From Leucoraja ocellata (Eukaryota): DNA of 64,000 nucleotides. The position numbers were made by a program, and so were the translations under genes. The notes beneath the pieces are model-generated. The model worked only from the letters and a program-made list of their open reading frames with translations, had not been told where the DNA came from and did no database searches. The stretch is from the NCBI GenBank assembly GCA_036785375.1, contig JAWMAR010002559.1, positions 1 to 64,000 of the forward strand, in the 5' to 3' direction. Shown here one piece after another: positions 1-53,449 of the stretch (position 1 is its first letter; every line of letters starts with the position of its first letter).

Positions 1-215
1 TGGAACCAGAGCTCAGCGTATTCCACCCCCTCGCCACCCAAAGCTACTAGTGGAGTAGCTCCTCTAGTGACTTTGCTCGCCACTGTGCCCGGTGTCTCCG
101 CTGCTCAGTACCTCCTGCAGGTTGACGTACACGGCCGATTGCTCTTCCCCTCTCCAAGATTCCCCTCCTCCTTTCCGCTCCGCTGGGGCCGGCCCGTTCT
201 CTCCACTCCCGCGCT
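1..215 (-). pseudogene. Copy A terminal cytoplasmic exon (AVYVNL and VEYAEL ITIM), decayed
   Basis: cctttcctaccag acceptor; homologous to 37759-37911 but 1 nt shorter at the start and interrupted by the insertion at 39-75. VEYAEL codons at 26..9 are intact but out of frame. Confidence 0.8.
39..75. mobile_element. 37-bp TIR mini-element (CAAAG...CTTTG) with 8-bp target duplication CTCGCCAC
   Basis: Imperfect hairpin caaagctactagtggag / ctcctctagtgactttg; duplicated flanks at 30-37 and 76-83; empty site at 37771-37778. Confidence 0.8.
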
Positions 216-1385: not shown

Positions 1386-2074
1386 AAGTCGCACCAGCTT
1401 CTCGTTTTCACCCAACAAACCACTAACAGTGGCCTGTTTCCTTTATCATCGTTACTTTGTTTACATCTATCTTTCATTCATTGTTCTTTATCTCTCTCTA
1501 CATCATCGTCTATATAGAGTCATCCATTGTGGAAACAGGCCCTTCTGCCCAACTTGCCCACACCGGCCAACATGGCCCAGCTACACTAGTCCCACCTGCC
1601 TGCGCTTGGTCCATGTACCTTTCTAACTGTTTCTTAAACGTTGAATAGTCCCAGCCTCAACTACCTCCTCCAGCAGCACGTTCCATACACGCACCACCCT
1701 TTGTGTGAAAAAGTTACCCCTCAGATTTTTTTCCCCTTCACCTTGAACCTATGTCCTCTGGTCCTCGATTCCCCTACTCTGGGCAAGAGACTCTGTGCAT
1801 CTACCCGATCTATTCCTCTCATGATTATATACACATCTATAAGATCACCCCTCATCCCCCTGCGTTTCAAGGAATGGAGTCCCAGCCACCTCAACCTCTC
1901 CCTGTAGCTCAGGCCCCTCGAGTCTTGACCGAAACATCACCTGTTCCTTCTCGTCAGAGATTCTGCCTGTTCCACTGAGTTACTCCAGCTTTTGTACCCA
2001 CGTTTGTATCATCTATAGTTGGGATTAAATACAAAGTTCCACTACCTGATTGGTGGCAGAGTGTGGGCAGTAGA

Positions 2075-2111
2075 TCACATTGGTGTCTTGGTTTCCTGAA
2101 GCATCTTCCTC
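2075..2111 (-). CDS. Copy A cytoplasmic exon, coding part RKMLQETKTPM*
   Basis: The acceptor used in copy B (ctgtag) reads ctgttg here. The next AG (gctgcag) with phase 2 gives a short tail ending at TGA 2075-2077. The exon donor follows position 2046. Confidence 0.6.
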
Positions 2112-3775: not shown

Positions 3776-3875
3776 GGCAGTATATACTTGTAGATGAAGA
3801 ATCCAGCTAGCACAGCGCTCAGTATTATTATCCCTGTTCTGAGCAAAACTTGCATCCAAATACTGAAGCTTTTAT
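3776..3875 (-). CDS. Copy A transmembrane exon, KSFSIWMQVLLRTGIIILSAVLAGFFIYKYILP
   Basis: ttcttacag acceptor (phase 1), CC|gtaagt donor (phase 2), hydrophobic helix with internal Arg (AGA 3838-3840). Confidence 0.85.
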
Positions 3876-9066: not shown

Positions 9067-9360
9067 CTTCCATCGACAGATACACCACGAACATGGCTTC
9101 CCCGTGCCGGTTTCGGACTGAGCACAAGGCCGTCACGTCCTCTCCTCCCCCACCCCCTCTCAGAGTGAGGGAGCCATTCACCAGATGCCCGCTTGCCACC
9201 TGCCAGGTGTGGAGACGTCCCTGGGTTTGATTTCCGCTGAGGTTGGAGAGGGAAAGTTGCCAGGTGAGCTCTCCGGGTGGGTTGCACCTGGCCGCACACA
9301 CACAGGTGACACTCTCAGGTGTGTGAGTGCATCCCGAATCCCGGGAAATCTCTGGCGCAT
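9067..9360 (-). pseudogene. Copy A membrane-proximal Ig4 exon, open frame but acceptor reads TG
   Basis: (Y)APEISRDSGCTHTPESVTCVCAARCNPPGELTW...ALCSVRNRHGEA, 294 nt, donor G|gtgagg. The C-x7-CxC pattern resembles the last Ig domain of MAG/CD33-related Siglecs. Preceded by ccctctccTG instead of AG. Confidence 0.75.
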
Positions 9361-12040: not shown

Positions 12041-12521
12041 CCTCCTTAAAGCTCCTTATTGGTAATACTCTCTAAACTAGGCAGCGTTGTGCACCCTGAC
12101 CACATCCTTCCTGTAATGGGGTGACCAGAACTGCACACAATGCTTCAAATAATTTTATCTAATCTTCCTTATCCTAGAAGAGGAGAGAGGAAATATAGGA
12201 AGTATGTTGTCAAGCAGGAAAGGGTGCAGCGAAGATTCATGAGGATGTGGCCAGGACTAGAGGGCCTGAGCTATAGGGAAATGTTGAGCAGGCTGGGACT
12301 CTCTTCCTTGGAGAACAGGGGGATGAGCGGTGATCTTATAGAGGTGTTTAAAATCATGAGAGGAATAGATCGGGTAGATTCACCGAGTCTCTTGCCCAGA
12401 GTAGGTGAATCGAGGACCAAAGGACATAGGTTTGAGTGTGTGTGTTAGTGAATTCCAGCATCTCTCATGGGCCAATAAACCATCTGCCTTTACATAGACA
12501 TGACAGTGTGTGTCTACACAC

Positions 12522-13239
12522 ATTCTACAGTGAGGGTCACATCCCTCTCTGCTGTCCCATGGTCATTCTCCGCCACACATTGATAGACCCCAGCGTCCTT
12601 CCCTGTCAGCTGAGGGAATTGAAAAGACTAGGCTTGTATTCACTGGAGTTTAGAAGGATGAGGGGATATCTTATAGAAACATATAAAATTATAAAAGGAC
12701 TGGACAAGGTAGATGCATGAAAATGTTCCCAATGTTGGATGAGTCCAGAACCAGCACCACAGTCTTAGAACAAAGGGGAAGCCATTTAAGACTGAGGTGA
12801 GAAAAAACTTTTTCACCCAGAGAGTTGTGAATTTGTGGAATTCCCTGCCACAGAGGGAAGTGGAGGCCAAGTCACTGGATAGATTTAAGAGAGAGTTAGA
12901 TAGAGCTCTAGGGACTAGTGGAATCAAGGGATATGGGGAGAAGACAGGCACGGGTTATTGATTGGGGACGATCAGCCATGATCACAATGAATGGCGGTGC
13001 TGGCTCGAAGGGCCGAACGGCCACCTCCTGCACCTATTTTCTATGTCTATGTCTATGTCCATCCACAGCTCGTTGCTGGAACGTGTTGTGTTCAGCGTGA
13101 CACCGATGTCTCCACATCAGGTTAGACGCTGGGAAACTCTGGAGGGAGCAGAGGATCGCTGCAGAGTTTCCTTCCTTTATACTGACGCAGGAATTGTTCA
13201 CATTGTCGGGGGATGTGATTGAGAGATTCTGGGGGGCGT
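12522..13239 (-). pseudogene. Copy A disrupted Ig3 exon (frameshift plus CR1 insertion)
   Basis: 5' half 13057-13239: YAPQNLSITSPDNVNNSCVSIKEGNSAAILCSLQSFPASNLMWRH, frameshift ~13105, then GVTLNTTRSSNELWMD. 3' half 12522-12618: FPQLTGKDAGVYQCVAENDHGTAERDVTLTVE then gt. Confidence 0.9.
12619..13056 (+). mobile_element. 5'-truncated CR1 inserted in the Ig3 exon (paralog 48337-48772)
   Basis: LGLYSLEFRRMRG.LIETYKI, CR1 3'UTR and (CTATGT)n tail, flanked by contiguous Ig coding halves. Confidence 0.9.
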
Positions 13240-14120
13240 CTGCAAACAGATAACATTCAGCAACCAGTTTTGCGGCACTTTCGGTGATCCTTGTAAAAGA
13301 CTTTAGTCTTCAGACTGTAGAGATACAATGCGAAAATAGGCCCTTCAGCCCACGGAGTCTGCGCCAACCATCGATCACACATTCACACACTAGTTCTATG
13401 TTTAGGGAAATGAGAGATATAGACGATGGTGTAGAGACATATAGAACAAAGAATGAAAGATATGCAAAAAGTTAACGATGATAAAGGAAACAGGCCGTTG
13501 TTAGCTGTTTGCTGGGTGAGAACGAGAAGCTGATGAGACTTGGGTGGGGGAGGGATGGAGAGAGAGGGAATGCCGGGGCTACCTGAAGTTAGAGAAATCA
13601 ATATACATACCACTGGGCTGTAAACTGCCCAAACAAAATATGAGATGCTGATCCTCCAATTTGCATTTAACCTCACTATGACAATGGTGGTGTCCGAGGA
13701 CAGAAAGTTCAGTGTGGGAATGGGAAGGAGAATTAATGTGTTTAGCAACCAGGAGATCAGGTAGGTCATACATCTCTCCACATCATCGTCTATATCTCTC
13801 GTTTCCCTTTCCCGAACTTTCAGTCTGAAGAAGGTTCTCGATCTGAAACGTCACCCATTCCTTCGCTCCAGAGATGCAGCCTGTCCTGCTGAGTTTCTCC
13901 AGCTTTTGGTGTTGATTTGATTAGTACAGGTGCCAGTGGATATGGGGAGAAGGCAGAAGAAAGGGGTTAGGATAGAGAGATTGATCAGCCATGATTGAAT
14001 GGCAGAGTAGAGTTGATGGGCTGAATGGCCTAATTCTGTACCTATCGTCTATGACCTTATATACCAGCGCTGCTAATAGATTATTGATGTTCCTGCACAA
14101 TAAACGATCTCCGTACTTAC

Positions 14121-14414
14121 ATTCCACAGTCAGTGGGAGGATCTGCTCCGATGACACAGTTGGGTATGTGACTCTGCAGGTGAGGTTTTGCCCGTGATGT
14201 TTGAGCGCTGGGGTCAGGGACAGAACAGAAGTATATGTCAGAGTGTCACCCTGCTGAGTTACGCTGTGTGAGGCTGACGGTGGTTCATCAGCGGGGGTGA
14301 CCCAGGTTAAGGTGGGTGCCGTTCCATCACACGTGGTGTTGAAGGAGCAGGTCATGTTCACAGGCTTTCCTGCCACCAATTCAGCAGGGAATATCGTGGG
14401 TTTATCCGTGAAAT
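14121..14414 (-). CDS. Copy A C2-set Ig exon (98 codons)
   Basis: tgtgttag acceptor, T|gtaagt donor. DFTDKPTIFPAELVAGKPVNMTCSFNTTC...LTW...HHGQNLTCRV...LTVE, typical Siglec domain 2 with the extra Cys. Confidence 0.93.
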
Positions 14415-14870: not shown

Positions 14871-15239
14871 CAGTAACACTGAGCTTTGTTACAGGGTGGT
14901 AGTTGTAAACATCTCCCCCATCGAATTCAACTCTGAACAAATAAGGACCTGCATCTTGCTGCGTGACGTTGTCTATGACCAGGGAACAGTCGTTGTCTAT
15001 CAGGATTCCTGACAGCCGGGTCCGATGCTGAAACTTTGTTGATTCTAGACTGTGATCCCCGGAGTGGAAGGCTACAGGACCTTTGTTGGTGTGCGACCAA
15101 CTGTTAAACCAGATTCCAGTCCGTGGTTTACTGTTCAGTCCCGACGGGTACGTGTAGTTACACGGAATCCGTGCACACAAACCGTTCTGCGCTGTCACAG
15201 CTCCGGGAATGTCCGCTCTCCACTCTCCCGACATCACGG
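14871..15239 (-). CDS. Copy A Siglec-type V-set Ig exon (123 codons)
   Basis: ttctctcctcag acceptor, G|gtaagt donor, phase 1-1. Siglec signatures GLCARIPC, NDCSL, and DAGPYLFRVE with the F-strand Arg (AGA 14932-14934). Confidence 0.93.
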
Positions 15240-15541: not shown

Positions 15542-15575
15542 CCCGTAAACACTTCTGAGTTGCTGCTGATGGTAC

Positions 15576-15615
15576 CTTGGAGAAGGGAGAGGAGGAAGAA
15601 CGATCTCCCGATCAT
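15576..15615 (-). CDS. Copy A signal-peptide exon, MIGRSFFLLSLLQ(A)
   Basis: ATG at 15615 (acaATG), hydrophobic core, phase-1 donor AAG|GTACC. Acceptor ctttctcttccag opens the exon at 15657. Joins the V exon as ...LLQAVMSGEW. Confidence 0.85.
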
Positions 15616-18812: not shown

Positions 18813-18900
18813 CTGTGTGGAGAACACAAATGTGTAGAGGGGTAGATTAGCATCTGGAAACGGAAGTAAAATAAGGAAGTATTCTTTTATCAGCAAACGG

Positions 18901-20734
18901 GTAAGTAAGTTAGTAAGTAAGTTTATTGGCCAAGTATTTACATACAAGGAATTTGCCTTGGTGCTCCGCCCACAAGTAACAACATGACATACAGTGACAG
19001 TTACGAATAACTCAGAAAACACTAAACAATAATAATGATAAAACATTAATGATAAAACACCATTGATCAAGCATGTGAACCAACAAAATACCAGATCAAA
19101 GGGAGGCTACAGATTTTTGGCTGTTGAGTAGAGCAACTACTCGTGGATAAAAACTGTTTTTATGTCTGGCTGTGGCAGCTTTGACAGTCCGGAGTCGCCT
19201 TCCAGAGGGAAGTAATTTAAAGAGTATGTGGCCAGGGTGAGAGGGGTCAGAGATGATCTTGCCCGCTCGCTTCCTGACCCTTACAGTGTACAGTTCATCA
19301 ATGGAGGGAAGGTTGCAGCCAATAACCTTCTCTGCTGATCGGACGATTCGCTGCAGCCTCCAGGTGTCGTGCTTGGTGGCTGAGCCAAACCAGACCATGA
19401 TGGAGAAGGTGAGAACAAACTCTACGATGGCCCTGTAGAATTGGACCATCATTGCCAGTGGCAGATTGTGCTTCCTCAGCTGCCATAGGAAGTACATCCT
19501 CTGTTGTGCCTTTTTGACTGTTAAGTCGATGGTAGCCCACTTAAGGTCCTTGAGATGATGGTTCCCAGGAACTTAAAAGACTCCACTGATGTGACTGTGG
19601 TGTTGTTGATGGTGAGTGGGGAACGGGAGGGAGAAGATCTCCTAAAGACTACAATCAATTCCACTGTCTTAAGAGCATTGAGCTCTAGGTTGTTGCGATG
19701 GCACCAGGACGCCAGCTGTGACAACTCGAGGACAACTCCTGTCTGTAGGCAGATTCCTCCCCATCCTGGATCAGTACAATCAGGCTTGTGCCATACACAA
19801 ACTTTAGAAGCTTGACAGAGGTGTCTGTGGAGGTGCAGTCGTTGGTGTAGAGCGAGTAGCGGAGAGCGCCTTGCGGTGCTCCTATGCTGAGCGTTTGCGG
19901 GTCCAAGATGTGCTTTCCCAGCCTCACATGCTACTTCCAGTCTGTCAGGAAGCTGGTGATCCACCGACAGAGAGGTTCAGGCACAGTCAACTCGGAAAGT
20001 TTGGAGTGTAATAGCACTGGCACAATGGTGTCGATTGCAGAGCTAAAATCAACAAACAGGATCCTTGAATAGGTCCCCTGGCGGTCTAGGTGCTGTAGGA
20101 TGAAGTGCAGGCCCAGGTTGACTGCTTCATCCACAGATCTATTGGCCCAATATGCAAACTGCACAGGGTCCAGCAGTGGGATTGTGATATTTTTCAGCTT
20201 GGCCAGCACAAGCGTTTCAAGTGTCTTCACGACTACAGAGGTCAGTGCAACAGGCCAGGGTAATCCTTGCCTTTTTGGGTACAGGGACAATAGTGGAGAC
20301 TTTGAAGCAGGCAGGGACAGTACATGTTTCCAGGGACTGGTTCAAAATGTCTGTATAGACCGTTGTTTGGCACAGAGCTTAAGAGTAGAGGGGGAAACAT
20401 TGTCAGGTCCTAGAGATTTACGGCTTTTTTGTCTTCTGAAAAGCCTCTCCGCCTCCTGATGAAGTGATGTTGCTCAGCAAGGAGGGTGTGGGTAATTGGG
20501 TGTGAAGTGGTGATTGCAGGGGGGTGGGTGTAGAAGGGCCCAGTCTTTGCAGACTATCTGGCTGTGAATGGGTGTGAAGTGTTGGTTGGGGTGGGAAATG
20601 GTTCTGTCGTTTCATAGTGTAGTCTTGCCTTAAATAGATGTAAAGTGATGAATGGGAAGGAGAGGGTGCAGGGTCGATTCTTTGCAGACTGGGGTCTGGC
20701 TGTGTTAGTTGGGGAGGGCGGCAGGGGGAGTGGT
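18901..20734 (-). mobile_element. Rex1/Babar-like LINE, truncated duplicate
   Basis: RT motifs PVALTSVV, QFAY, RILFVDFSSA, FKFLG; (AAGT)n tail; frameshifted. Confidence 0.85.
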
Positions 20735-21699
20735 TACCCCTCAGATTGCAATTAACATTTTTCCCCCTCTCACCTTAAATCAATGTCCTTTGGTCCTCGA
20801 TTCACCTACTCTGTGCAAGAGACACTGTGTGTCTACCCGATCTATTCCTCTCATGATTTTATGCATCTGCATAAGATCACCCCTCATCCTCCTGCGTGCA
20901 AGGAATAGCATCCCAGCGACCCATTCCTGGTAACATCCTCATAAATCTTCTCCGTACCCATTCCAGCTGAAAACATCTTTCCGATCACATGGTGCCCAGA
21001 ACTGAATGCACATATTCTGAATGCGGCTTCACCAACGGCTTACACAACTGCAACAGAACCTTCCGATTTCTGAACTGTGCAAACTGTGTGAGCAGGTGTG
21101 AATGGGTCCAAAGCCTGGCAAGTGATAGTGGATACAGGTGAGGGGGGCAGATGATTAGACTAGGTGGGAGAATCTAAGTACAGAGGTCACAGCCACAGAA
21201 TTGAAGGACGTTCTTCTGGGAAGGCGATAAGAAGGAATTTCTTCGGTCAGAGGATGGCGAGTGTGGAATTATTTGCCACACAAGGCTGTGGAGGCCGTCA
21301 ATTAATATTTTTTTAAGGTACAAAATACACCAGATAGATTCTTGATTAGTACGGGTGTCAGGGGTTATGGGGAGAAGGCAGGAGAATGGGTTGAGAGGGA
21401 ATGATAGACCAGCCATGATTGAATGTTTGCTGTAGACTTGATGGGCCGAACGGCTTAATTCGGCTCCTATCATAAGGTCATCAGGAATAGGAGTAGAAGA
21501 ATGTCTTTTAATTCTGAGGCTGTGACCTCTACTCCTAGACTCATCCAATGGTGGAAATATCCTCTTAACATCCACTCTATCCAAGCCTTTCACTATTCTG
21601 TATTTTTCAATGAGGTCCCCCCTCATTCTTCTCAACTCCAGCGAGAACAGCCCCAGTGCCAACAAGCGCTGATCATAGGTTAATCTCGTGATTACCATA

Positions 21700-22470
21700 T
21701 AACCATATAACAATTATAGCACGGAAACAGGCCATCTCGGCCCTTCTAGTCCGTGCCGAACACTTATTCTCCCCTAGTCCCATCTATCTGCACTCAGACC
21801 ATAACCCTCCATTCCTTTCCCGTCCATCTACCTATCCAATTTATTTTTAAATGATAAAATTGAACCTTCCTCCAGCACTTCCACTGGAAGCTCATTCCAC
21901 ACCGCTACCACTCTGAGTAAAGAGATCCCCCTCATATTACCCCATAACTTCTGTCCCTTAATTCTCAAATCATGTCCTCTTGTTTGAATCTTCCCTACTC
22001 TCAATGGAAAAAGCTTATCCACGTCAACTCTGTCTATCCCTCTCATCATTTTAAAGACCTCTATCAAGTCTCCCCTTAAACTTCTGCGCTCCAAAGAATA
22101 AAGACCTAACCTGTTCAACCTTTGTCTGTAACTTAGTTGCTGAATCCCAGGCAACATTCTAGTAAATCTCCTCTGTACTCTCTCTATTTTGTTGACATCC
22201 TTCCTATAATTTGGCGACCAAAATTGTACACCATACTCCAGAATTGGCCTCACCAATGCCTTGTACAATTTTAACATTCCTGGGATCATTCTTGTAAACC
22301 TCCTCTGGATCCTCTCCAGAGCCAGCACATCCTTCCTCAGATACGGTGCCCAAAATCGCTCACAATATTCCAAATGCGGCCTCACCAGCACCTTATGGAG
22401 CCTCAACATTATACCCCACGTTTTTGTATAAAACCCTCTTGAAATAAATGCTAGCGTTGACTTTGCTCTC
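21700..22470 (-). mobile_element. Nested CR1 3' fragments (paralogs ~30162-30940 and ~55180-55960)
   Basis: Two successive VRPxLEY...RRFTRM motifs in ORFs 21828-22487, 30365-30961 and 55370-55981. Confidence 0.85.
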
Positions 22471-22494
22471 TTTACTACTGTCATCACTATAACT

Positions 22495-22650
22495 TATGAA
22501 GTGGCAGAGACTCGAGAGGCCCAACGACTTCTTGATATATGAGGAAGTAACAGGAAATTTAGTGCAGAAAATGAAAATGTTCATTCACAGAATGAAGGGA
22601 AATGTATTCATTTGCATCCTCACGTCTGAGTTCCCCAGAGGTGAGGGTGC
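22495..22650. promoter_or_regulatory. ETS/PU.1 plus IRF motif cluster (related copies ~27975, 30970, 53558, 55990)
   Basis: GAAGTG, GAGGAAGT, CAGGAAA and GAAAATGAAA within ~80 bp of sequence showing no TE signature, upstream of the gene. Confidence 0.35.
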
Positions 22651-24230
22651 AAAACACTCCCTTTATTCATTGTGGAAACAAAGTTCTGGAGGAACTCACG
22701 GATCTGTGGGGGTTAGACACAAAGTGCTGGAGTAACTCAGCGGGACGGGCAGCATCTCTGTAGAGAAGGAATGGGTGATGTTTCGGGTGTGTAGGGGAGG
22801 GGGGTGTAAGGGAGGGGGGGTGTAGGGGAGGGGGATGTGGGAGGGGGTTGTAGGGGAGTGGGGGTGTAGGGGAGGGGGGGTGTGTGGGAGGGGGTGGGGG
22901 AGGGGGGATGTGGGAGGGGGCTCAACAGCCCACACTCTGCTGCTTCAGCTTTATTCTCGGCAGCTTCTGGACGGGCGACATCTGAACCGTTTTTGAGCAA
23001 ATTTAAAAACAACACAGAGGGGAAGTGGTCAAGATGAGAGTTTTAGTAATAGTGTAGACAGAAGATAGATTGTATCAGGATGCATCGCAGCTTGCTTTGG
23101 GAACAGCTCCATCCAAGATCGCAACAGGTCCTTCGGCCCACCATGTCCATGCCAGCCCTTTTTTTGGCCCATCTATTGGTCTGATTGTATAATTGCCATG
23201 TGTACCAGAATTCAGTGTTTGCACGCAACCCAGGCTGGTCGTACTGTACAAGGTCATAAGTGATAGGAGCAGAATTAAGCCATTCGGCCCATCAAGTCTG
23301 CTCCACCATTCAATCATTGCAGACCTATCTCTATCTCCTAACCCCATTGTCCTGCCTTCTCCCCATAACCTCTGTCACCAGTACAAATCAAGAATCTATC
23401 CGTCTCAGCCTTAAATAATCCACTGACTTAGCCTCTACAGTCTACTGTGGCAAAGAATTCCACAGATTCACCACCCTCTGACTGAAGATGTCCTTCCTCA
23501 TCTCCTTCCTAAAAGAACATCCTTTAATTCTGAGGCTGTAATCTCTAGTCCTAGACTCTCCCACTAGTGGAAACATCCTCTCCACGTTCACTCTATCCAA
23601 GCCTTTCATTATTCTGTATGTCCCTCCCTCATTCTGCTAAACTCCAGCGAGTACAGGCCCAGTGCTATCAAATGCTCATCATATGTTAACCCACTCATTC
23701 CTGGGATCATTCATGTAAACCTCCTCTGGACCCTCTCCAGAGCCAGCACATCCTTCCTCAGATATGGGGCCCAAAATCGCTCACAATATTGAGTACAATA
23801 TATACTGAGAGTCATGGGAGAGGGAGACACAGAAATACCTTTCTGTCCTGGGCCACCTTCACTGTTCGAGTCAGGCCCAACGCAAATTGGGGAACAGCAC
23901 CTCATATTACGCTTGGGCAGCTTACACCGGTACGATTATCGACTTCTCTAACTTCGTAACCTTGCTTTCCCTCTGTCTCCATCCCTCCTCTTTCCTATTC
24001 TACAACCAGTCTGACCGTCCTCTTGACGGTCTTGTGGGAACGAGCGACAGACACGGAATTACGTACCTGGGTTCTGTCCGCTGGTCGAGTATCGACTGAC
24101 AAACACTCAGGGAGCCAGTGTCCTCATCCTCAGCGGCTGTCACTGTGTGGAGAACACAAATGTGTAGAGGGGTAGATTAGCATCTGGAAACGGAAGTAAA
24201 ATAAGGAAGTATTCTTTTATCAGCAAACGG

Positions 24231-26545
24231 GTAAGTAAGTAAGTAAGTAAGTTTATTGGCCAAGTATTTACATACAAGGAATTTTCCTTGGTGCTCCGCC
24301 CACATGTAACAACATGACATACAGTGACAGTTACGAATAACTCAGAAAACACTAAACAATAATAATGATAAAACATTAATGATAAAACACCATTGATCAA
24401 GCATGTGAACCAACAAAATAACAGATCAAAGGGAGGCTACAGATTTTTGGCTGTTGAGTAGAGCAACTACTCGTGGATAAAAACAGTTTTTATGTCTGGC
24501 TGTGACAGCTTTGACAGTCCGGAGTCGCCTTCCAGAGGGAAGTGATTCAAAGAGTATGTGGCCAGGGTGAGAGGGGTCAAAGATGACCTTGCCCGCTCGC
24601 TTCCTGGCCCTTGCAGTGTATAGTTCATCAATGGAGGGAAGGTTGCAGCCAATAACCTTCTCTGCTGATCGGATGATTCGCTGCAGCCTCCAGGTGTCGT
24701 GCTTGGTGGCTGAGCCAAACCAGACCATGATGGAGAAGGTGAGAACAAACTCTACGATGGCCGTGTAGAATTGGACCATCATTGCCAGTGGCAGATTGTG
24801 CTTCCTCAGCTGCCGTAGGAAGTACATCCTCTGTTGTGCCTTTTTGACTGTTAAGTCGATGGTAGCCCCCCCACTTAAGGTCCTTGAGATGATGGTTCCC
24901 AGGAACTTAAAAGACTCCACTGATGTGACTGTGGTGTTGTTGATGGTGAGTGGGGAACGGGAGGGAGATGATCTCCTAAAGACTACAATCAATTCCACTG
25001 TCTAAAGAGCATTGAGCTCTAGGCTGTTGCGATGGCACCAGGAAGCCAGCTGTGACAACTCCAGGCCAACTCCTGTCTGTAGGCAGATTCCTCCCCATCC
25101 TGGATCAGTACAATCAGGCTTGTGCCATACACAAACTTTAGAAGCTTGACAGAGGTGTCTGTGGAGGTGCAGTCGTTGGTGTAGAGAGAGTAGAGGAGAG
25201 GAGAGCACCTTGCGCTGCTCCTATGCTGAGCGTTTGCGGGTCCAAGATGTGCTTTCCCAGCCTCACATGCTACTTCCAGTCTGTCAGGAAGCTGGCGATC
25301 CACCGACAGAGAGGTTCAGGCACAGTCAACTCGGAAAGTTTGGAGTGTAATAGCACTGGCACAATGGTGTCGATTGCAGAGCTAAAATCAACAAACAGGA
25401 TCCTTGAATAGGTCCCCTGGCGGTCTAGGTGCTGTAGGATGAAGTGCAGGCCCAGGTAGACTGCTTCATCCACAGATCTATTGGCCCGATATGCAAACTG
25501 CACAGGGTCCAGCAGGGGGATTGTGATATTTTTCAGCTTGGCCAGCACAAACGTTTCAAGTGTCTTCACGACTACAGAGGTCAGTGCAACAGGCCAGGGT
25601 AATCCGTGCCTTTTTGGGTACAGGGAAAATAGTGGAGACTTTGAAGAAGGCAGGGTCAGTACATGTTTGCAGGGACTGGTTCAAAATGTCTGTATAGACC
25701 GTTGTTTGGCACAGAGCTTAAGAGTAGAGGGGGAAACATTGTCAGGTCCTAGAGATTTACGGCTTTTTTTGTCTTCTGAAAAGCCACTCCGCCTCCTGAT
25801 GAAGTGATGTTGCTCAGCAAGGAGGGGGTGGGTAATTGGGTGTGAAGTGGTGATTGCAGGGGGGTGGGTGTAGAAGGGCCCAGTCTTTGCAGACTATCAG
25901 GCTGTGAATGAATGTGACGTGTTGGTTGGGGTGGGAAATGGTTCTGTCGTTTCATAATGTAGTCTTGCCTTAAATAGATGTAAAGTGATGAATGGGAAGG
26001 AGAGGGTGCAGGGTCGATTCTTTGCAGACTGGGGTCTGGCTGTGTTAGTTGGGGAGGGCGGGAGGGGGAGTGGTGGAGTGGGGGAGAGGGTACCAGGGTT
26101 ACGTTTATGATTTTCAAACCTGTAGTAAACTCATTCAGGCCGTTGGTCAGTTGACGATTGTGCAAAGAGCGGGGGGCTTTCATCTTGTAGCTGGTAATTT
26201 CTTGCAAGCCCTTCCAAACTGAAGACGAGTCACTAGCTGAGAACTTGCTCTGCAATTTCTCAGAGTACTTTTCCTTGGCAGCTCTGATTCCTCTTCTCAG
26301 CTTGTACTTGGCCTGCCAGTAGAGGCCTGCATCCCCGCTCCTGTAGGCCTCCTCTTTAGACTGTCGAAGCTGTCTGAGTTTTGCAGTGAACCAGGGCTTG
26401 TTGTTGTTGAACCATGTCCGGGTCTTAGTGGGAATGCAACTGACCTCGCAAAAGCTGACATATGATGATACAGTGTCCGTATACTCATCGAGGCTTGTGG
26501 TGGCTTCCCTGAACACATTCCAATCCGTGCAGTCAAATCAGGATT
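24231..26545 (-). mobile_element. Rex1/Babar-like LINE, degenerate ORF
   Basis: NNKPWFT, DPVQFAYRANRS, FKFLG, KKAQQRMYFLRQL, DPSHPGH motifs; (AAGT)n tail. Confidence 0.88.
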
Positions 26546-37463: not shown

Positions 37464-37758
37464 TCAATATTTACCCGCGGAAGTCTGGGTTCTAAAGAAC
37501 AAAGGCTTTTTTAAAGAGATACAGCGGGAAAACAGGCCCTTCAGCCCACCGAGTCCGCACCGACCATCGGTCATCCGTTCACACACTAGTTCTATGTTAT
37601 CCCACTATTTCATCTACAGAGGGTTAATTAATCTATGAAACCCAAGGTAGTTAAGGCTGGTGCAGCGCTCTCTCCCCATCGCCTCTCCCTCCTCACCACC
37701 CTTCCCTCCATCCTCCCACCTACCCCTTCCCCTGCTTGGACTGGAACCAGAGCTCCGC

Positions 37759-37911
37759 CTATTCCACCCCCTCGCCACTGTGCCCGGTGGCTCCGCTGCT
37801 CAGCACCTCCTGCATGTTGGCGTACACGGCCGATTGCTCTTCCCCCTCGCCTGATTCCCCTCCTTCTTTCCGCTCCACTGGGGCCGGCCCGTTCTCCCCA
37901 CTCCCCGCGCT
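37759..37911 (-). CDS. Copy B terminal exon, SAGSGENGPAPVERKEGGESGEGEEQSAVYANMQEVLSSGATGHSGEGVE*
   Basis: ccctttccttccag acceptor, phase 0. TAG at 37759-37761 sits where copy A has TAC (ITIM Tyr). The frame continues AELWFQSKQGKG to TAG at 37720-37722. Confidence 0.8.
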   Translation of the reverse strand, partial: SAGSGENGPAPVERKEGGESGEGEEQSAVYANMQEVLSSGATGHSGEGVE

Positions 37912-39194
37912 CTGGAAGGAAAGGGAAGCAGACGGGCAGTTGTGGGTTTAGTACAGAGCAGTGTGGCCCGGCATTTAATACCATCAGTGAGAAGGTTCAC
38001 AACTCCTGTACTCCCACAGACCCAGGTTCAGCCATGTTGTTGATGTTCTCCTCTCACACACTCTCGCTCTCCTTCTCTCTCCCCCTCTCTCACTTTCTCT
38101 CCCTCTCCCTCTCCTCTCACTTGCAGTTTCACACTTTTTCTCTCCCCCTTTCGCCCTCTCCTCTTTCTCTCACTCGCTCACACTCAGGCACTGTGTCTCT
38201 CACACTCGCAGTTTCACCCACTCTCCCTCTCTCGCCCCGTCTCCCCCTCTCTCCAACTTTCTCTCTCTCTCACACCCACTCTCACACCCACACACTCTCA
38301 CATAGTTAGATAAATCAATATTCATATCCCCGGTTGCTAAATACTTTAATTCCCCTTCCCACACTGACCTTTCTGTCCTCGGTCGCCTCCATTGACAGAG
38401 TGAGGCTAAACACAAATTGGAGGACCAGCATCACATATTCCGTTTGGGCAGCTTACAGCCCAGTGATATGAACATTGATTTCCCTCACTTGAGGTAGCCC
38501 TGTGTTCCCTCTCTCTCCATCCCTCCCCCTCCCAAGTCGCACCAGCTTCTCGTTTTCACCCAACAAACCACTAACAGTGGCCTGTTTCCTTTATCATCGT
38601 TACTTTGTTTACATCTATCTTTCATTCATTGTTCTTTATCTCTCTCTACATCATCATCTATATAGAGTCACACATTGTGGAAACAGGCCCTTCTGCCCAA
38701 CTTGCCCACACCGGCCAACATGGCCCAGCTACACTAGTCCCACCTGCCTGCGCTTGGTCCATGTACCTTTCTAACTGTTTCTTAAACGTTGGGATAGTCC
38801 CAGCCTCAACTACCTCCTCCAGCAGCTCGTTCCATACACGCACCATCCTTTGTGTCAAAAAGTTACCCCTCAGATTTTTTCCCCTTCACCTTGAACCTAT
38901 GTCCTCTGGTCCTCGATTCCCCTACTCTGGGCAAGAGACTCTGTGCATCTAACCGATCTCTTCCTCTCATGATTTTATACACATCTATAAGATCACCCCT
39001 CATCCCCCTGCACTCCAAGGAATAGAGTCCGAGCCTCCTCAACCTCTCCCTGTGGCTCAGGCCCCTCGAGTCTCGACCGAAACATCGCCTGTTCCTTCTC
39101 TCCAGAGATTCTGCCTGTTCCACTGAGTTACTCCAGCTTTTTGTACCCACTTTTGTATCATCTGTAGTTGAGATTAAATACAAAGTTCCACTAC

Positions 39195-39267
39195 CTGATT
39201 GGTGGCAGATTGTGGGCAGTAGATCACATTGGTGTCTTGGTTTCCTGAAGCATCTTCCCTCCAGCAG
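39195..39267 (-). CDS. Copy B cytoplasmic exon, (H)CWREDASGNQDTNVIYCPQSATNQ
   Basis: cttctgtag acceptor (phase 2) and CAG|gtagtg donor (phase 0) link the TM and terminal exons in frame. Confidence 0.72.
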
Positions 39268-40174
39268 CTACAGAAGATCACACCAAGTTTACAGCACATC
39301 AGCAAATTCCAAGTATAAAGTTGCAGTTGTATTAGACGTTGGTCATAAAGTCATGAGGTTATTAATGATAGGAGCAGAATGAAGTCATTCGGCCCATCAA
39401 GTCTACTCTGCCATTCAATCATGGCTGATCTAACTCTTCCTTCTAATTCCATTCTCCTGCCTTTTCCCCCATAACCCCTGACACCCGTACTGATCAATAA
39501 CCTATCCATCTCTGCCTTAAACATATTGATTGGCTTGGCCTCCACAGCCTTCTGTGGCAAAGAATTACACAGATTCACCACCCTCTGACTGAAGAAACTC
39601 CTACTCTGCTTCCAAAAGGTAGTCCTTTAATTCTAAGGCTGTGGCCTCTGGTCCTAAACTCACACTCCTACTAGTGGAAACATCCTCTCCACATCCACTC
39701 TATCCAGGCCATTCACTATTCATTAAATATCAATGAGGTCTTCCCCTCATCCTTCTAAACTCCAGCTAGTACAGGCCCAGTAAGTGTCAAATGTTAATCA
39801 TTCTCGTAAACTTCCTTTGGACCCTCTCCCGAGCCAACACATTCTCCCTCAGATATGGGGCCCAAAACAGCTCACAACAGTCTAAAGGCCATCCGTCGCT
39901 GGCTCTGATTTGTTCTAACTTTCTCAACCTTTCAGTCTGAAGAAGGTCCCAACCCGAAATGTCACCTATTCCTGAATCCCCAGAGATGCTGCCTGACCCG
40001 CTGAGTTACTCCAGCACTTTGTACCTGTCCATGATCTCCAGAGATGCTGCCTGACCCGCTGAGTTACTCCAGCACTTTGTGTCTGTGAACAGGAGTTAGC
40101 CTGGCAGAAGCAGTCATAAGCAGATGACAAAGAGATGGATTTGGCAGTAAAAATGTGGATTTATTTAAACTTAC

Positions 40175-40271
40175 TGCAGTATATACTTGTAGATGATGAA
40201 TCCAGTTAGCACAGCCACCAGTATTATCCTTGCTGTAAGCAAAACTGCCTTCCAAATACTGAAGCCTTTAT
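40175..40271 (-). CDS. Copy B transmembrane exon, KGFSIWKAVLLTARIILVAVLTGFIIYKYIL(H)
   Basis: tttttacag acceptor, CA|gtaagt donor, internal Arg (AGG 40228-40230). Confidence 0.85.
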
Positions 40272-42699
40272 CTGTAAAAACAAGAGGTGTGTTTTCAGTT
40301 TTTACAGTTTAATTTATTGTCACGTGTAACGAGGTACAGTGAAAAGCTTTTGTGTCGTGCTATCCAGTCAGCAGAAAGGCAATACGTGATTACAATGGAG
40401 CCGTCCACAGTGTACAGATACAGAACAAAGGGAATAACGTTTAGTGCAAGGTAAAGCCAGCAAAGTTCGATCAAAGATAGTCCGAGGGTCACCAATGAGG
40501 TAGATAGTAGTTCAGGACTGCTCCCTAATTGTGGTAGAATGGCCTGATAACAGCTGGGAAGAAACTGTCCCTGAATCTGGAGATGTGCGTTTTCACACCA
40601 GTTCCCTTATCATGTATCTAAATACTGTAAACAGCTTGATTGTAATCATGTGTGGTCTGTACACTGACTGGTTAGCACACAACAAAAGCTTTTCACTGTA
40701 GCTCGGCGCACACATGACAATAAACTAAACTGTAACATAGTCTTATAGTAGTGTATAAATCATGAGTGGATTAGATCGGGTAGATGCACAGAGTCTCTTG
40801 CCCAGAGTAGGGGAATCGAACATCAGAAAACATAGGTTTAAGGTGAGGGGGAAAAGATTTAATAGGAATCTAAGGGGAAACATTTCCACACAGTGAGTGG
40901 TGGGTGTATGGATTGTGCTGCCAGAGGCCGTTGAGGCAGAGACTATCCCAACATTTACAAAACAGTTATACAGGTACATGGATAGGACTGGTTTGCAGGG
41001 ATATGGACCAAGCACAGGCAGGTGGGACTAGTGTAACTGGGGCATGTTGGCTGGTGTGGACAAGTTGGGCCAAAGTGCCTGTTTCCACAATGTATCACTA
41101 TAACTCTGTGAGACGGATATGGGCCTGTTTTCATGCAATGCCACTATGACTCAATGATATCTTGCCTGCCGCAGATGTTAGAGTCTAGTTGTTGTGCAAG
41201 ACGTTGGTGAGACCGCATTTGAGGTATTGCGTCTAGCTTTAGTCACACTGCTCTAGGAAGGAAGCTGGAAAGAGTGCAGAGAAGATTCATGACAATAGAC
41301 AATAGGTGCAGGAGTAGGCCATTCGGCCCTTCGAGCCAGCACCGCCATTCAATGTGATCATGGCTGATCATCCACATTCAGTACACCGTTCCTGCCTTCT
41401 CACCATATCCCTTGACTCCGCTATCTTTAAGAGCTTTATCTAACTCTCTCTTCAAAGCATCCAGAGAATTGGCCTCCACTGCTTTCTGAGACAGAGAATT
41501 CTACAGATTCACAATTCTCTGGGTAAAAAAGTTTTTCCTCATTTCCATTTTAAATGGCCTACCCCTTATTCTTAAACTGTGGCCCCTGGTTCTGGACTCC
41601 CGCAACAGGAACATTTTTCCCGCCTCTAGCGTGTTCAATCCCTTCATAATCTTATATGTTTCAATAAGATCCCTTCTCATCCTTCTAAATTCCAGTGTAA
41701 TCCAGTTATTTTTTCACACAAAGAGTGGTGAATCTCTGGAACTCTCTGCCGCAGAGGGTAGTCGAGGCCAGTTCATTGGGTATATTTAAGAGGTAGTTAG
41801 ATGTGGCCCTTGTGGCTAAGGGGATCAGAGTGTATGGAGAGAAGGCAGGTACGGTCTACTCAGTTGGATGATCAGCCATGATCATATTGAATGGCGGTGC
41901 AGGCTCGAAGGGCCGAATGGCCTACTCCTGCGCCTAATTTATATGTTTCTATACAAGCCCAGCCGCTTCATTCTATCAACATATGCCAATGCCGCCATCC
42001 CGGGAACTAACCTCATGAACCTGCGCTGCACTCCCTCAATAGCAAGAATAGCTTTCCTCAAATTTGGAGACCAAAACTGCACACAATACTCCAGGTGTGG
42101 TCTCACCAGGGCCCTGTACATCTGCAGAAGGACCTCTTTGCTCCTATATTCAACTCCTGCTGTAATGAAGACCAGCATGCCATTGCCGTTCTTCGCTGCT
42201 TGTTGTACCTGCATGCTTACTTTCAGTGACTGATGAACAAGATCTCTTTGTACTTCCCCTTTTCCCAACTTGACACCATTCAGATAATAATCTGCCTTCC
42301 TGTTTTTGCCACCAAAGAGGATAACCTCATATTTATCCACATTAAATTGCATCTGCCATGCACCCGCCCACTCACCCAACCTGCTGAGGTCACTCAGCAT
42401 CCTCATAGCATCCTCCTCACAGTTCACACAGCCACCCAGCTTTGTGTCATCTGCATATTTGCTGATGGTGCTTTGAATCCCTTCATCTAAATCATTGATG
42501 TATATTGTAAATTGCTGCATTCCCAGCACTGAACCTTGCGGTACCCCACTAGTCACTGCCTGCCATTCTGAAAGGGACCCGTTAATCCCTACTCTTTGTT
42601 TCCTGTCTGCCAACCAATTTTATATCCATGTCAGTTCCCTACCCCCAATATCATGTGCTCTAATTTTGCCACTAATCTCCTATGTGGGACTTTGTCAAA

Positions 42700-45625: not shown

Positions 45626-48239
45626 ATTTCTATCAGGTCTCCCGTCAGCCTTTCAACTGGGTGGTGAATCTGTGGAATTCTTTGCAACAGACGGCAGTGG
45701 AGGCCAAGTCAGTGGTTATATTTAAGGCAGAGATAGATAGATTCTTCATTAGTACGGGTGTCAGAGGCTATGGGGTGAAGGCAGGGGAATGGGGCAGGGG
45801 AGGGAGAATTAGATCAGCCATCATCGAATGGCAGAGTAGACTTGATGGGCCGAATGGGCCCTTGGCAGTGTGTTGCGGATGCTCTCCATGGTTAAACAGT
45901 TTACCAGGGAGTACAAGTACCTTATACAAATATCACCAGTCTGAAGAAAGGTCTCACCCCAAAATGTCACCTATTCCTTCCCTCCAGAGATGCTGCCTGT
46001 CCCGTTGAGTTACGCCAGCATTGCAATAACCAACCTGATCTCCCAGTGGCTCAGCACTTCAACTCTTCCTCACATTCCAAATCCAACCTCTCTGTCCTGG
46101 GCCTCCTCCATGGCCAGAGTGAGGCCCACCGTAAATTGGAGGAGCAGCACCTCATATTTCGCTTGGGCAGTTTACACCCCAGCGGTATGAACATTGACTT
46201 CTCTAATTTCAGGTAGTCCCGGCTTTTTCCTCTCCTTCCCAGCTCTCCCTCAGCCCACAGTCTCCTCCTCTTCCTATCTTCTTCCCGCCCCCATCCTCCT
46301 ATCAGTCTGAAGGGTCTCGACCCGAAACGTTGCCTATTTCCTTCACTCCATAGATGCTGCCTCACCCGCCGAGTTTCTCCAGCATTGTCTGCTCCAGCAT
46401 TTTGTGTCTATCTTCAGTAAACGGGACTGATCCAAGAACTCTGAGGCCCTGTACAAGAAGGGACAGAGCTTTCTGAGAAGGCTCCGCTCCTTCAACATCT
46501 GCAGCAAGAAGCTGCAGATGTTCTACTAACGGTGGTGACCAGTGCCATCTTCTTCGCTGCCGTGTGCCGGGGCAACAGGGCGAAGGCTGCAGATGCCAAT
46601 GGGATCAACAAGCTCATCAGGAAGGCCGGCTCCATCCTGGGGGCGGAGTTGGATTCACGGGAGGTTGGTCTTGGAGGGGAGGATGCTCCTCAAACTGTGG
46701 AGCATCCTGAACAATACAGCTCACCCCCTCCGTGACACATTGGTCAACCTGAGGAGCACATTCAGCAACAGACTGGTTACACCAAGATGCAGCACAGAAC
46801 GCCACAGGAGATCCTTCTTCCCTGTGGCTATCAAACTGTACAACTCCTCCCCCTTCTGTCATAGTGTAGACTGAGACTGACTCGCCTCCCCATCGCCCCC
46901 CTCCCATGTAATCTTTGCACAGCCCCCAAGCCTTTCCACTCGTCACTTTAATTTCATATTTCAAGTATTTTGTGTTTGTGTATTTTGTGTATTTAGTTCT
47001 CTCCAGGGATATATAAAGTTCCATTGTGTCGTATCGTATTGTAAAAGTTACCCCGCACATCTCCTTTACAATTTTCCCCTCTCACCTTAAAGCTCTGCCC
47101 TCTCAACCTTGACATTTGCACCATGTGAAAAAGATTCTGACTGTCTACCTTCTCAATGCAACTCATAGTTTTATATATTTCTATCAGGTCTCCCCTCAGC
47201 CTTTCAATTGGGTGGTGAATCTGTGGAATTCTTTGCCATAGACCGCAGTGGAGGCCAAGTCAGTGGTTATATTTAAGGCAGAGATAGATGGATTATTGAT
47301 CAGTACGGGTGTCAGAGGCTATGGGGTGAAGGCAGGGGAAGGGGAGGGAGAAATAGATCAGCCATGATCGAATGGCAGAGTAGACTTGATGGGCCGAATG
47401 GCCTTATTGTGCTCCCATCACTTATGAACATGAACTCCAGAGAAAGTCTATCCAACCTCTTCTTTAGTTTAGTTTAGAGATACAGCGCGGAAACAGGCCC
47501 TTCGGCCCACCGTGTCCACGCAGACCAGCGATCCCGACACATATACTATCCTGCACACACTAGTGACAATTTACAAATATACCAAGCCAATTAACCTGCA
47601 CACCTGTATATCTTTGGAGTGTGGGAGGAAACCGGAGCACCCGAAGAAAACCCACGTAGGTTATGGGATGAACTTGCCAACTCCGTACCGACAAGCACCC
47701 GTAGTGAGGATTCAACCTGGCTCTCTGGTGCTGTGAGGCAGCAACTCTACCGTTGAACCACTGTGTGCCCCCCTTAAAACTCCTTATTGGTAATACTCTC
47801 TAAACTAGGCAGCGCTGTGCACCCTGACCACATCCTTCCTGTAATGGGGTGACCAGAACTGCACACAATGCTTCAAATAATTTTATCTAATCTTCCTCAT
47901 CTTAGAAGAGGAGAGAGGAAATATAGGAAGTATGTTGTCAAGCAGGAAAGGGTGCAGCGAAGATTCATGAGGATGTGGCCAGGACTAGAGGGCCTGAGCT
48001 ATAGGGAAAGGTTGAGCAGGCTAGAACTCTCTTCCTTGGAGAACAGGGGGATCTTATAGAGGTGTTTAATATCATGAGAGGAATAGATCGGGTAGATTCA
48101 CCGAGTCTCTTGCCCAGAGTAGGTGAATCGAGGACCAAAGGACATAGGTTCGAGTGTGTGTGTTAGTGAATTCCAGCATCTCTCATGGGCCAATAAACCA
48201 TCTGCCTTTACATAGACATGACAGTGTGTGTCTACACAC

Positions 48240-48955
48240 ATTCTACAGTGAGGGTCACATCCCTCTCTGCTGTCCCATGGTCATTCTCCGCCACACATTG
48301 ATAGACCCCAGCGTCCTTCCCTGTCAGCTGAGGGAATTGAAAACACTAGGCTTGTATTCACCGGAGTTTAGAAGGTTGAGGGGATATCTTATAGAAACAT
48401 ATAAAATTATAAAAGGACTGGACAAGGTAGATGCATGAAAAATGTTCCCAATGTTGGGCGAGTCCAGATCCAGGGGCCACAGTCTTAGAATAAAGGGGAA
48501 GCCACTTAAGACTGAGGTGAGAAAAAAAAATTTCACCCAGAGAGTTGTGAATTTGTGGAATTCCCTGCCACAGAGGGAAGTGGAGGCCAAGTTACTCGAT
48601 GGATTTAAGAGAGAGTTAGAGCTCTAGGGGCTAGTGGAATCAAGGGATATGGGGAGAAGACGGGCACGGGTTATTGATTGGGGACGATCAACCATGATCA
48701 CAATGAATGGCGGTGCTGGCTCGAAAGGCCGAATGGCCTCCTCCTGCAACTATTTTCTATGTCTATGTCTATGTCCATCCACAGCTCGTTGCTGGAACGT
48801 GTTGTGTTCAGCGTGACACCGATGTCTCCACATCAGGTTAGACGCTGGGAAACTCTGGAAGGAGCAGAGGATCGCTGCAGAGTTTCCTTCCTTTATACTG
48901 ACCCAGGAATTGTTCACATTGTCGGGGGAAGTGATTGAGAGATTCTGGGGGGCGT
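48240..48955 (-). pseudogene. Copy B disrupted Ig3 exon
   Basis: Halves at 48773-48955 and 48240-48336, with the same frameshift and the same CR1 insertion site as copy A. Confidence 0.9.
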
Positions 48956-49837
48956 CTGCAAACAGATAAAATTCAACAACTAGTTTTGCGGCACTTTCGG
49001 TGTCCCTTGTAAAAGACTTTAGTCTTCAGACTGTAGAGATACACTGCGGAAATAGGCCCTTCAGCCCACGGAGTCCGCGCCAACCATCGATCACACATTC
49101 ACACACTAGTTCTATGTTTAGGGAAATGAGAGATATAGACGATGGTGTAGAGACATATAGAACAAAGAATGAAAGATATGCAAAAAGTTAACGATGATAA
49201 AGGAAACAGGCCGTTGTTAGCCGTTTGTTGGGTGAGAACGAGAAGCTGATGAGACTTGGGTGGGGGAGGGATGGAGAGAGAGGGAATGCCGGGGCTACCT
49301 GAAGTTAGAGAAATCAATATACATACCACTGGGCTGTAAACTGCCCAAGCAAAATATGAGATGCTGATCCTCCAATTTGCATTTAACCTCACTCTGACAA
49401 TGGTGGTGTCCGAGGACAGAAAGTTCAGTGTGGGAATGGGAAGGAGAATTAATGTGTTTAGCAACCAGGAGATCAGGTAGGTCATACATCTCTCTACATC
49501 ATCGTCTATATCTCTCGTTTCCCTTTTCTGGAACTTTCAGTCTGAAGAAGGCTCTCGACCCGAAACGTCACCCATTCCTTCTCTCCAGAGATGCAGCCTG
49601 TCCTGCTGAGTTTCTCCAGCTTTTGGTGTTGATTTGATTAGTACAGGTGTCAGAGGATATAGGGAGAAGGCAGAAGAAAGGGGTTAGGAGAGAGAGATTG
49701 ATCAGCCATGATTGAATGGCAGAGTAGAGTTGATGGGCTGAATGGCCTAATTCTGTACCTATCGTCTATGACCTTATATACCAGCACTGCTAATAGATTA
49801 TTGATGTTCCTGCACAATAAACGATCTCCGTACTTAC

Positions 49838-50131
49838 ATTCCACAGTCAGTGTGAGGGTCTGCTCCGATGACACAGTTGGGTATGTGACTCTGCAGGTGA
49901 GGTTTTGTCCGTGATGTTTGAGCGCTGGGGTCAGGGACAGAACAGAAGTATATGTCAGAGTGTCACCCTGCTGAGTTACGCTGTTTGAGGCTGACGGTGG
50001 TTCATCAGCGGGGGTGACCCAGGTTAAGGTGGGTGCCGTTCCATCACACGTGGTGTTGAAGGAGCAGGTCATGTCCACAGGCTTTCCTGGCACCAATTCA
50101 GCAGGAAATATCGTGGGTTTATCCGTGAAAT
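49838..50131 (-). CDS. Copy B C2-set Ig exon
   Basis: 294 nt, AG/GTAAGT, 5 aa differences from copy A. Confidence 0.93.
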
Positions 50132-50587: not shown

Positions 50588-50956
50588 CAGTAACACCGAG
50601 CTGTGTTGCAGGGAGGTAGTTGTACTTATTTCCCCCTCCGAAATCAACTTTGAAAAAATAAGGACCTGCATCTTGCGGCGTGACGTTGTCTATAACCAGG
50701 GAACAGTCGTTGTCTATCAGGATTCCTGACAGCCGGGTCCGATGCTGAAACTTTGTTGATGCTAGACTGGGATTCCCGGAGTGGAAGGCTACAGGACCTT
50801 TGTTGTCGTACGACCCACTGTTAAACCAGATTCCAGTCCGTGGTTTATTGTTCAGATCCGACGGGTACGTGTAGTGACACGGAATCCGTGCACACAAACC
50901 ATTCTGCGCTTTCACAGCTCTGGGATTCCATGCACCCCACTCTCCCGACATCACGG
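50588..50956 (-). CDS. Copy B Siglec-type V-set exon with essential Arg>Lys
   Basis: 369 nt, phase 1-1, donor G|gtaatt. GLCARIPC and NDCSL retained; DAGPYFFKVD with AAA at 50649-50651. Confidence 0.93.
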
Positions 50957-51090: not shown

Positions 51091-51795
51091 CTCCCTCCTC
51101 ACCGCCCCTCCCCCAGTGCATCACTCCCTCCTCACCGCCCCTCCCCCAGTGCATCACTCCCTCCTCACCGCCCCTCCCCCAATGCATCACTCCCTCCTCA
51201 CCGCCCCTCCCAGAATGCATCACTCCCTCCTCACCACCCCTCCCACAGTGCATCACTCCCTCCTCACCGCCCCTCCCAGAATGCATCACTCCCTCCTCAC
51301 CACCCCTCCCACAGTGCATCACTCCCTCCTCACCGCCACTCCCACAATGCATCACTCCCTCCCACAGTGCATCACTCCCTCCTCACTGCCCCTCCCCCAG
51401 TGCATCACTCCCTCCTCACCACCCCTCCCACAGTGCATCACTCCCTCCTCACCGCCACTCCCACAATGCATCACTCCCTCCCACAGTGCATCACTCCCTC
51501 CTCACCGCCCCTCCCCCAGTGCATCACTCCCTCCTCACCGCCCCTCCCAGAATGCATCACTCCCTCCTCACCGCTCCTCCCACAATGCATCACTCCCTCC
51601 CACAATGCATCACTCCCTCCTCACTGCCCCTCCCCCAGTGCATCACTCCCTCCTCACCGCCACTTCCACAGTGCATCACTCCCTCCTCACCACCCCTCCC
51701 ACAGTGCATCACTCCCTCCTCACCGCCACTCCCACAATGCATCACTCCCTCCCCCAGTGCATCACTCCCTCCTCACCGCCCCTCCCCCAGTGCAC
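51091..51795. repeat. 33-bp minisatellite expanded to roughly 20+ variant units
   Basis: Same unit with substitution variants and shortened units. Confidence 0.95.
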
Positions 51796-51834
51796 CATTC
51801 CCCGTAAACACTTCTGAGTTGCTGCTGATGGTAC

Positions 51835-53249: not shown

Positions 53250-53449
53250 NNNNNNNNNNNNNNNNNNNNNNNNNNNNNNNNNNNNNNNNNNNNNNNNNNN
53301 NNNNNNNNNNNNNNNNNNNNNNNNNNNNNNNNNNNNNNNNNNNNNNNNNNNNNNNNNNNNNNNNNNNNNNNNNNNNNNNNNNNNNNNNNNNNNNNNNNNN
53401 NNNNNNNNNNNNNNNNNNNNNNNNNNNNNNNNNNNNNNNNNNNNNNNNN
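53250..53449. other. Assembly gap (200 N)
   Basis: Flanks map to ~17190 and ~27866 in unit 1, so up to ~10 kb may be unresolved. Confidence 0.99.

Follow-up and report, generated by a model that had tools for sequence, protein, structure and literature searches.

Selection and gene conversion as the probable joint source of V-domain diversity in a young Siglec-like gene family of the skate Leucoraja ocellata

We consider it probable (roughly 0.7) that selection and gene conversion jointly diversify the V domains of a young Siglec-like family in the skate Leucoraja ocellata, and that a Lys in place of the essential Arg of these domains is carried on a segment encoding the F and G strands. In the mechanism proposed from these sequences, conversion would keep divergence in the introns and C2 exons at about 3%, and selection would preserve many alternative residues in the A strand, the B-C and C-C' loops and the F-G strands. 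Every copy would thereby gain its own combination of residues. The Lys would have had a single origin and would then have been moved on the F-G segment to different backgrounds. The product of the gene that first drew attention, called gene B below, is likely to consist of a leader, a V domain, a C2 domain and a transmembrane (TM) segment, with a tail ending before the distal Tyr motif.

The window, which is the whole stretch of 64,000 nucleotides that was analysed (GenBank assembly GCA_036785375.1, contig JAWMAR010002559.1, positions 1 to 64,000), contains two tandem genes on the minus strand with about 36 kb between them. The lower is gene A and the upper is gene B. Their 5' halves are about 96% identical (94-97%), and there is only 84-89% identity between the 3' part of gene B (37771-40602) and positions 76-4208 of gene A, so the entire genes are mosaic too. 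The features of the two genes are as follows.

15576..15615, minus strand: leader exon of gene A, from comparison with gene B
14871..15239, minus strand: V-set exon of gene A (Pfam, alignment), with Arg102 retained (codon AGA, 14934-14932)
14121..14414, minus strand: first C2-set exon of gene A (Pfam)
12521..13240, minus strand: third Ig exon of gene A, broken in the same way as that of gene B
9067..9360, minus strand: fourth Ig-like exon of gene A, frame open, acceptor TG; missing in gene B
3776..3875, minus strand: transmembrane exon of gene A, second type, with an Arg toward the outer end
2046..2111, minus strand: first cytoplasmic exon of gene A, 1 nt shorter within a G run
1..215, minus strand: last exon of gene A, with an insert that brings a stop ahead of the distal Tyr motif; truncated by the contig end
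51835..51874, minus strand: leader exon of gene B, identical to that of gene A
50588..50956, minus strand: V-set exon of gene B (Pfam V-set, 1.7e-9; best Foldseek matches MAG, sialoadhesin and CD33)
50651-50649, minus strand: Lys codon AAA of gene B at the essential-Arg position, residue 102, F strand
49838..50131, minus strand: first C2-set exon of gene B, open (Pfam C2-set_2)
48239..48956, minus strand: third Ig exon of gene B, with a frameshift and a repeat insert of about 440 nt (48330-48766), likely skipped
40175..40271, minus strand: transmembrane exon of gene B, common type, with Gly>Arg within the segment
39195..39267, minus strand: first cytoplasmic exon of gene B, acceptor CAG>CTG
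37720..37911, minus strand: last exon of gene B, proximal Tyr motif present, TAG (37761-37759) in place of the distal Tyr

The 1-nt loss at 2046..2111 lies close to the contig end and is either a frameshift or an assembly error. A third gene of the family is located just past the window in the same orientation (64001-78595 of the same contig; loci L108 and L057), and its V exon is the same as one on contig C428, so the gene is either a duplicate of very recent origin or a redundant haplotype. Intron 1 carries a GC-rich minisatellite at 51091-51802 in gene B and at 15374-15543 in gene A, its length differing greatly between the two; lying beside the V exon, it is a possible recombination-prone site. 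There is also an intergenic 3.3-kb direct duplication (96%) within 17439-26074, and an assembly gap of 200 N at 53250-53449, upstream of gene B.

A genome search with the V exon returned 118 matches, of which 43 span the full exon without a stop at an identity of 68% or more. Forty of the top loci were compared, besides A and B. Thirty-four copies (A, B and L031-L062) make up a young subfamily and the 8 others are older paralogs; the repeat insert in the third Ig exon is found in 31 of the 34 and is absent from all 8. Five of the 34 V exons are identical to another and were dropped, leaving 29 distinct V exons, and allelic copies or duplicated haplotypes may be among those analysed. Trees of the flanks and of the V exons are mostly without resolution. 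Outside this genome, the closest proteins are from Amblyraja radiata, with V domains 79-81% identical, and there are 58 longer homologs across elasmobranchs. Several other V variants are present in three other organisms among the matches listed, and there is almost no exon coverage in single-cell reads from a related organism (X24; about 1% of the run examined), too little to inform on expression.

Two further observations concern copy structure. There are 26 near-full-length V matches of 61-66% identity that contain one TGA each, found on contigs C1699, C2552, C3808, C3195, C3369, C1048 and others (L106 and L107 among the loci) and spaced 22-29 kb apart where a contig has two. In both of the two that were checked, the TGA replaces the A-strand Trp codon, and it seems that this stop was already present when a second subfamily was amplified. 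Seven copies (L031, L044, L045, L049, L050, L051 and L062) have internal duplications of a block composed of a partial C2 exon, the dead Ig exon and another that is intact, so the number of Ig exons varies by copy.

The domain features indicate that these copies form a Siglec-like immune receptor family, as judged by sequence and predicted structure. The V domain of gene B matches Pfam V-set as well as Ig_CD22, its best solved relatives are MAG, Siglec-8, sialoadhesin and CD33, and its top PDB matches are all Siglecs. The predicted model (pLDDT 85) has a TM-score of about 0.8-0.87 to Siglec structures. MAG is the best match both by sequence (E 1.8e-14, scoring slightly above CD33) and by structure (TM-score 0.87, 35% identity). 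Next to the Arg, Siglec V domains carry aromatic residues on their A and G strands, and they also have extra cysteines. Here, Trp6 and Tyr111 align with the Trp and Tyr of MAG, Tyr111 is invariant in the 29 V exons, and Cys21, Cys26 and Cys84 are conserved. The family also possesses a C2-set domain, a TM segment and cytoplasmic Tyr motifs, of which gene B has the proximal one only. The F-strand Arg is retained in gene A and in 26 of the 29 V exons, and is replaced by Lys in gene B. The reading of this AGA>AAA change as loss of the essential Arg is borne out by codon 102, which aligns with the F-strand Arg of MAG and Siglec-8. MAG (Siglec-4) is a single conserved ortholog, whereas the skate V domains, about 35% identical to it, are multi-copy and fast-evolving.

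The V exon stands out from its neighbours when the two genes are compared, as the sequence-only reading had claimed. There are 36 differences among 369 nt of the V exons, which are AG/GT-bounded in both genes, as compared with 7 of 294 nt in the C2 exons, none of 40 nt in the leader and 102 of 3456 positions (3.0%) in the non-coding flanks. The excess of V over non-coding divergence is significant (Fisher p=1e-8), as is that of V over C2 amino acids (p=0.001). At the protein level, 25 of 122 residues differ in V when whole codons are used, the earlier figure of 25 of 123 having included the split codon, and the five changes previously counted in C2 are found again among 97 rather than 98 residues. 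Twenty of the 25 V changes fall in 60 residues that comprise the A strand, A-A', the B-C and C-C' loops, F, the F-G loop and G (strands from the predicted model), and five fall in the other 62 (p=0.0006, with the grouping set after the data were seen). Clustering at the N-terminal strand, C-C' and F-G thus agrees with what had been proposed, but the B-C loop and C'-D, with three changes each, had been overlooked.

For the A/B pair there are about 31 nonsynonymous and 5 synonymous V changes (dN 0.119, dS 0.062), and the excess of dN over dS within this pair alone is not significant (Fisher p=0.21). The signal resides in the family. Across the 29 V exons, pN is 0.115-0.121 and pS is 0.045-0.054, which gives a ratio of 2.15-2.68 with a lower confidence limit of 1.47-1.85. 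Without six close copies and with a 10-codon block bootstrap, the ratio is 2.15-2.25 (lower limit 1.40-1.57). In the same set of copies, distances in the introns and in the dead exon are 0.030-0.041. The C2 exons of the subfamily give pN 0.027 and pS 0.038, and their ratio of 0.72-0.85 has a confidence interval (0.37-2.0) that does not make purifying selection clear. Similarly, pN exceeds pS in 392 of 406 V pairs versus 122 of 378 C2 pairs. Second codon positions in V differ by 13.2%, as against 2.5% at V four-fold sites, which is the intron level but is biased low because only codons with agreeing first two bases were counted. Mean heterozygosity is 0.33 on the variable face and 0.11 elsewhere in V. 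The length of V is a multiple of 3 in all 34 copies (five lengths), and the corresponding figure for indels in the introns and the dead exon is 5 of 37. An equally raised V dS with a dN/dS of 1 or below, which the sequence-only reading had linked to conversion by itself, is therefore not what is found in either the pair or the family.

These variants are not confined to A and B. At 33 of the 36 positions where their V exons differ, both alleles are found in other copies, and the remaining three are private to B. An origin of the A/B divergence between these two genes after their duplication was considered and is rejected, since the 33 variants are common to other paralogs. The distance between the two V exons lies at the 37th percentile of the 406 pairs, and neither gene is the nearest neighbour of the other in V or in the flanks. 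The share of positions with both alleles elsewhere is only moderately lower in the flanks (12/17, 17/24 and 5/7). The copy nearest to A or B switches from window to window along V, and distances across V thirds correlate weakly (rho 0.24-0.27). A test for gene conversion across the cluster had been suggested from the sequence, and a custom PHI-type test gives p=0.0002 for V and p=0.001 for intron 3 at a short window, with nothing significant for C2 or intron 2. The V exons of the subfamily are a patchwork of common variants. Selection and conversion had earlier been offered as alternatives; both are supported, but they appear to act together, and the A/B pair alone is no proof of selection.

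The Lys allele illustrates this movement of segments. Lys is found at position 102 in three of the 29 V exons, located on three contigs (gene B, C1278 and C2500), with Arg in the other 26. An identical 25-nt motif surrounds it on all three contigs, which makes a sequencing error unlikely. From codon 96 to the end, the Lys copies are 2.3-4.6% apart, among the lowest 3-5% of pairs, and they are an ordinary 8-12% apart over codons 1-95. This points to a single origin and movement on the F-G segment. Variability at position 102 is 0.19, as compared with 0.30-0.75 at most of the variable residues near it, and positions 100, 104, 106 and 110 vary widely. Conservation of the Arg amid such neighbours suggests that sialic-acid binding is still important for most copies. 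Arg>Lys abolishes binding in Siglec-7 (PMC7250851) and serves as a non-binding control in Siglec-9 (PMC11884560). By analogy with these mutants, Lys102 would likely stop canonical sialic-acid binding by gene B.

The explanation that competes most seriously concerns gene B itself, which might be decaying. Its V exon would then have been inherited as a mosaic, and no selection would lie behind the damage represented by the Lys, the loss of the fourth Ig exon, the altered acceptor and the stop. We rate this at somewhat below even odds, and it can hold alongside selection across the family. The earlier argument against simple pseudogene drift is weakened, because the family-wide signal says little about the function of gene B, which has 3' lesions. 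Among 29 parsed tail exons (40 matches listed, 30 taken), the TAG at the distal Tyr is found in gene B only, the motif being kept in 26. The CAG>CTG acceptor is likewise unique to gene B among 29 copies; in-frame AG alternatives are located 6 nt upstream and 3 nt downstream of it. The TM Gly>Arg change is shared with a single other copy (L160), which has a stop in that exon, and the Lys requires one transition, found in 3 of 29 copies, which is within the neutral range. Against decay, gene B has open leader, V, C2 and TM exons whose splice sites are canonical, it can encode an in-frame product, and the C1278 copy with Lys has an intact TM segment and both Tyr motifs. Moreover, the broken third Ig exon is family-wide and is also found in the Amblyraja radiata model P0011. 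Skipping of the phase-1 third and fourth Ig exons would yield a leader-V-C2-TM product like the annotated model P0014 of that species. Contigs from two runs of related organisms, representing other family members, join V to C2 exactly at the position equivalent to 50588/50131, their origin from RNA being a guess.

Another possibility, which we regard as rather unlikely, is that the Lys itself is selected. Perhaps it makes a receptor that is blind to sialic acid and so escapes sialylated pathogens, or that recognizes another anionic ligand, with gene B as an activating or decoy partner. One Lys haplotype is indeed found with three different 3' ends, namely a two-Tyr tail (C1278), an Arg-TM with a truncated tail (C2500) and the Arg-TM with a stop of gene B. 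Among 79 V domains from proteins of other cartilaginous fishes, 3 likewise have Lys at this site, and natural loss of the essential Arg recurs in primates, with human and ape cases described (PMC6288428 and PMC7379906). However, the allele is infrequent and requires one nucleotide change, and the three Lys domains elsewhere sit in proteins with multiple tandem V domains. With its low variability of 0.19, this position gives no sign that Arg>Lys is itself selected. Basking shark and ray models P0001, P0003 and P0004 have tandem V domains, some of which carry Lys or Ser in place of the Arg, and the longest of these may be neighbouring genes fused in annotation.

It is quite unlikely that conversion without selection accounts for the V exons. 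In such a scheme, V tracts imported from older paralogs raise V diversity, and introns, which lack donor homology, stay low. Fifty of 104 minor shared V alleles are also present in the 8 older paralogs, which means that some of this diversity may be of older date or have been imported, and many codons differ at several bases. In a count of distinct alleles, there is no excess of nonsynonymous (0.479 per site) over synonymous alleles (0.484, with doubtful changes scored as synonymous), and V synonymous alleles per site exceed those of introns (0.20-0.33). However, comparison of young with old V exons gives pN 0.193 and pS 0.144, and imported tracts should thus produce a pN/pS of about 1.3 rather than above 2. 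The intron-level divergence at four-fold sites and the concentration of variation on one face also speak against this scheme. We read the V variation as variants retained against homogenisation, which is still selection.

An assembly artefact, with A and B being alleles placed in tandem or the Lys a base error, is scarcely credible: identical V exons do occur on different contigs and there are 1-nt losses in G runs by a contig end, but A and B do not share the same set of exons or the same TM type, each lies closer to copies elsewhere in the assembly than to its tandem partner, and the Lys motif recurs on three contigs.

There are two kinds of 3' end in the family, and on sequence grounds they resemble paired inhibitory and activating receptors with putative adaptor binding. 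The second TM type, with the Arg, is found at 11 loci (gene A and 10 others in the L115-L125 range). Downstream of 8 of these loci there is the insert that ends the tail ahead of the distal Tyr; one locus runs off its contig and two are unmatched. Tails of this type have mostly lost the distal Tyr motif and retain the proximal one, and the combination of Arg-TM and cut tail is a candidate activating class. Paired mammalian Siglecs (-5/-14 and -11/-16) similarly have like ectodomains and two 3' ends, one of which carries a basic TM residue (PMC8161119) and has no distal Tyr motif. In the skate, by contrast, the Arg is near the outer TM end, the proximal Tyr motif is kept, and there are about 11 Arg-type 3' ends that do not form one-to-one pairs.

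The closest known parallel is the mammalian CD33-related cluster (Siglec-3, -5 to -12, -14 and -16), for which clustered, fast-changing receptors with V-set and C2-set domains and Tyr-motif tails, and conversion among them, are described (PMC13358205, PMC6288428 and PMC7379906). The skate family works like this cluster in its mode of evolution. The skate differs in that one subfamily, with introns only about 3% apart, contains 29 or more distinct V exons. Its V exons are mosaics of many donors, whereas mammalian conversion is described as homogenising pairs. Human Siglec-XII and ape Siglec-5/-14 have, like gene B, lost the Arg in an open V domain; the replacements given in PMC7379906 are Cys, His or Tyr, unlike the skate Lys, which is found in three paralogs on one haplotype. 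Skate, ray and shark models named 'Siglec-12/13-like', 'CD33-like' or 'MAG-like' have homologous V domains, but these names are automatic only. No study of this cartilaginous-fish Siglec-like family was found in the literature searched, whose scope left out most subscription journals.

The evolutionary mode is already known from mammals, in which Siglecs are reported to have undergone duplication, domain shuffling, conversion and mutation of the Arg (PMC13358205), and the A/B pair by itself is ordinary. One wider possibility, unlikely on present evidence, is a combinatorial paired repertoire. Dozens of germline copies would swap short segments of the binding face and would carry them on two kinds of 3' end, inhibitory with two Tyr motifs or Arg-TM with a truncated tail; Lys on both kinds would provide sialic-acid-blind sensors, and gene B would be a second, independent move to an Arg-TM and a cut tail. 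The possible novelty lies in the larger scale of this mode in a cartilaginous fish, where a nearly constant scaffold carries 29 natural V variants. Such a set makes it testable which loop residues determine glycan specificity. It would also allow tests of whether the natural Lys can serve a different ligand, and of a separate elasmobranch origin for activating and inhibitory Siglec pairs.
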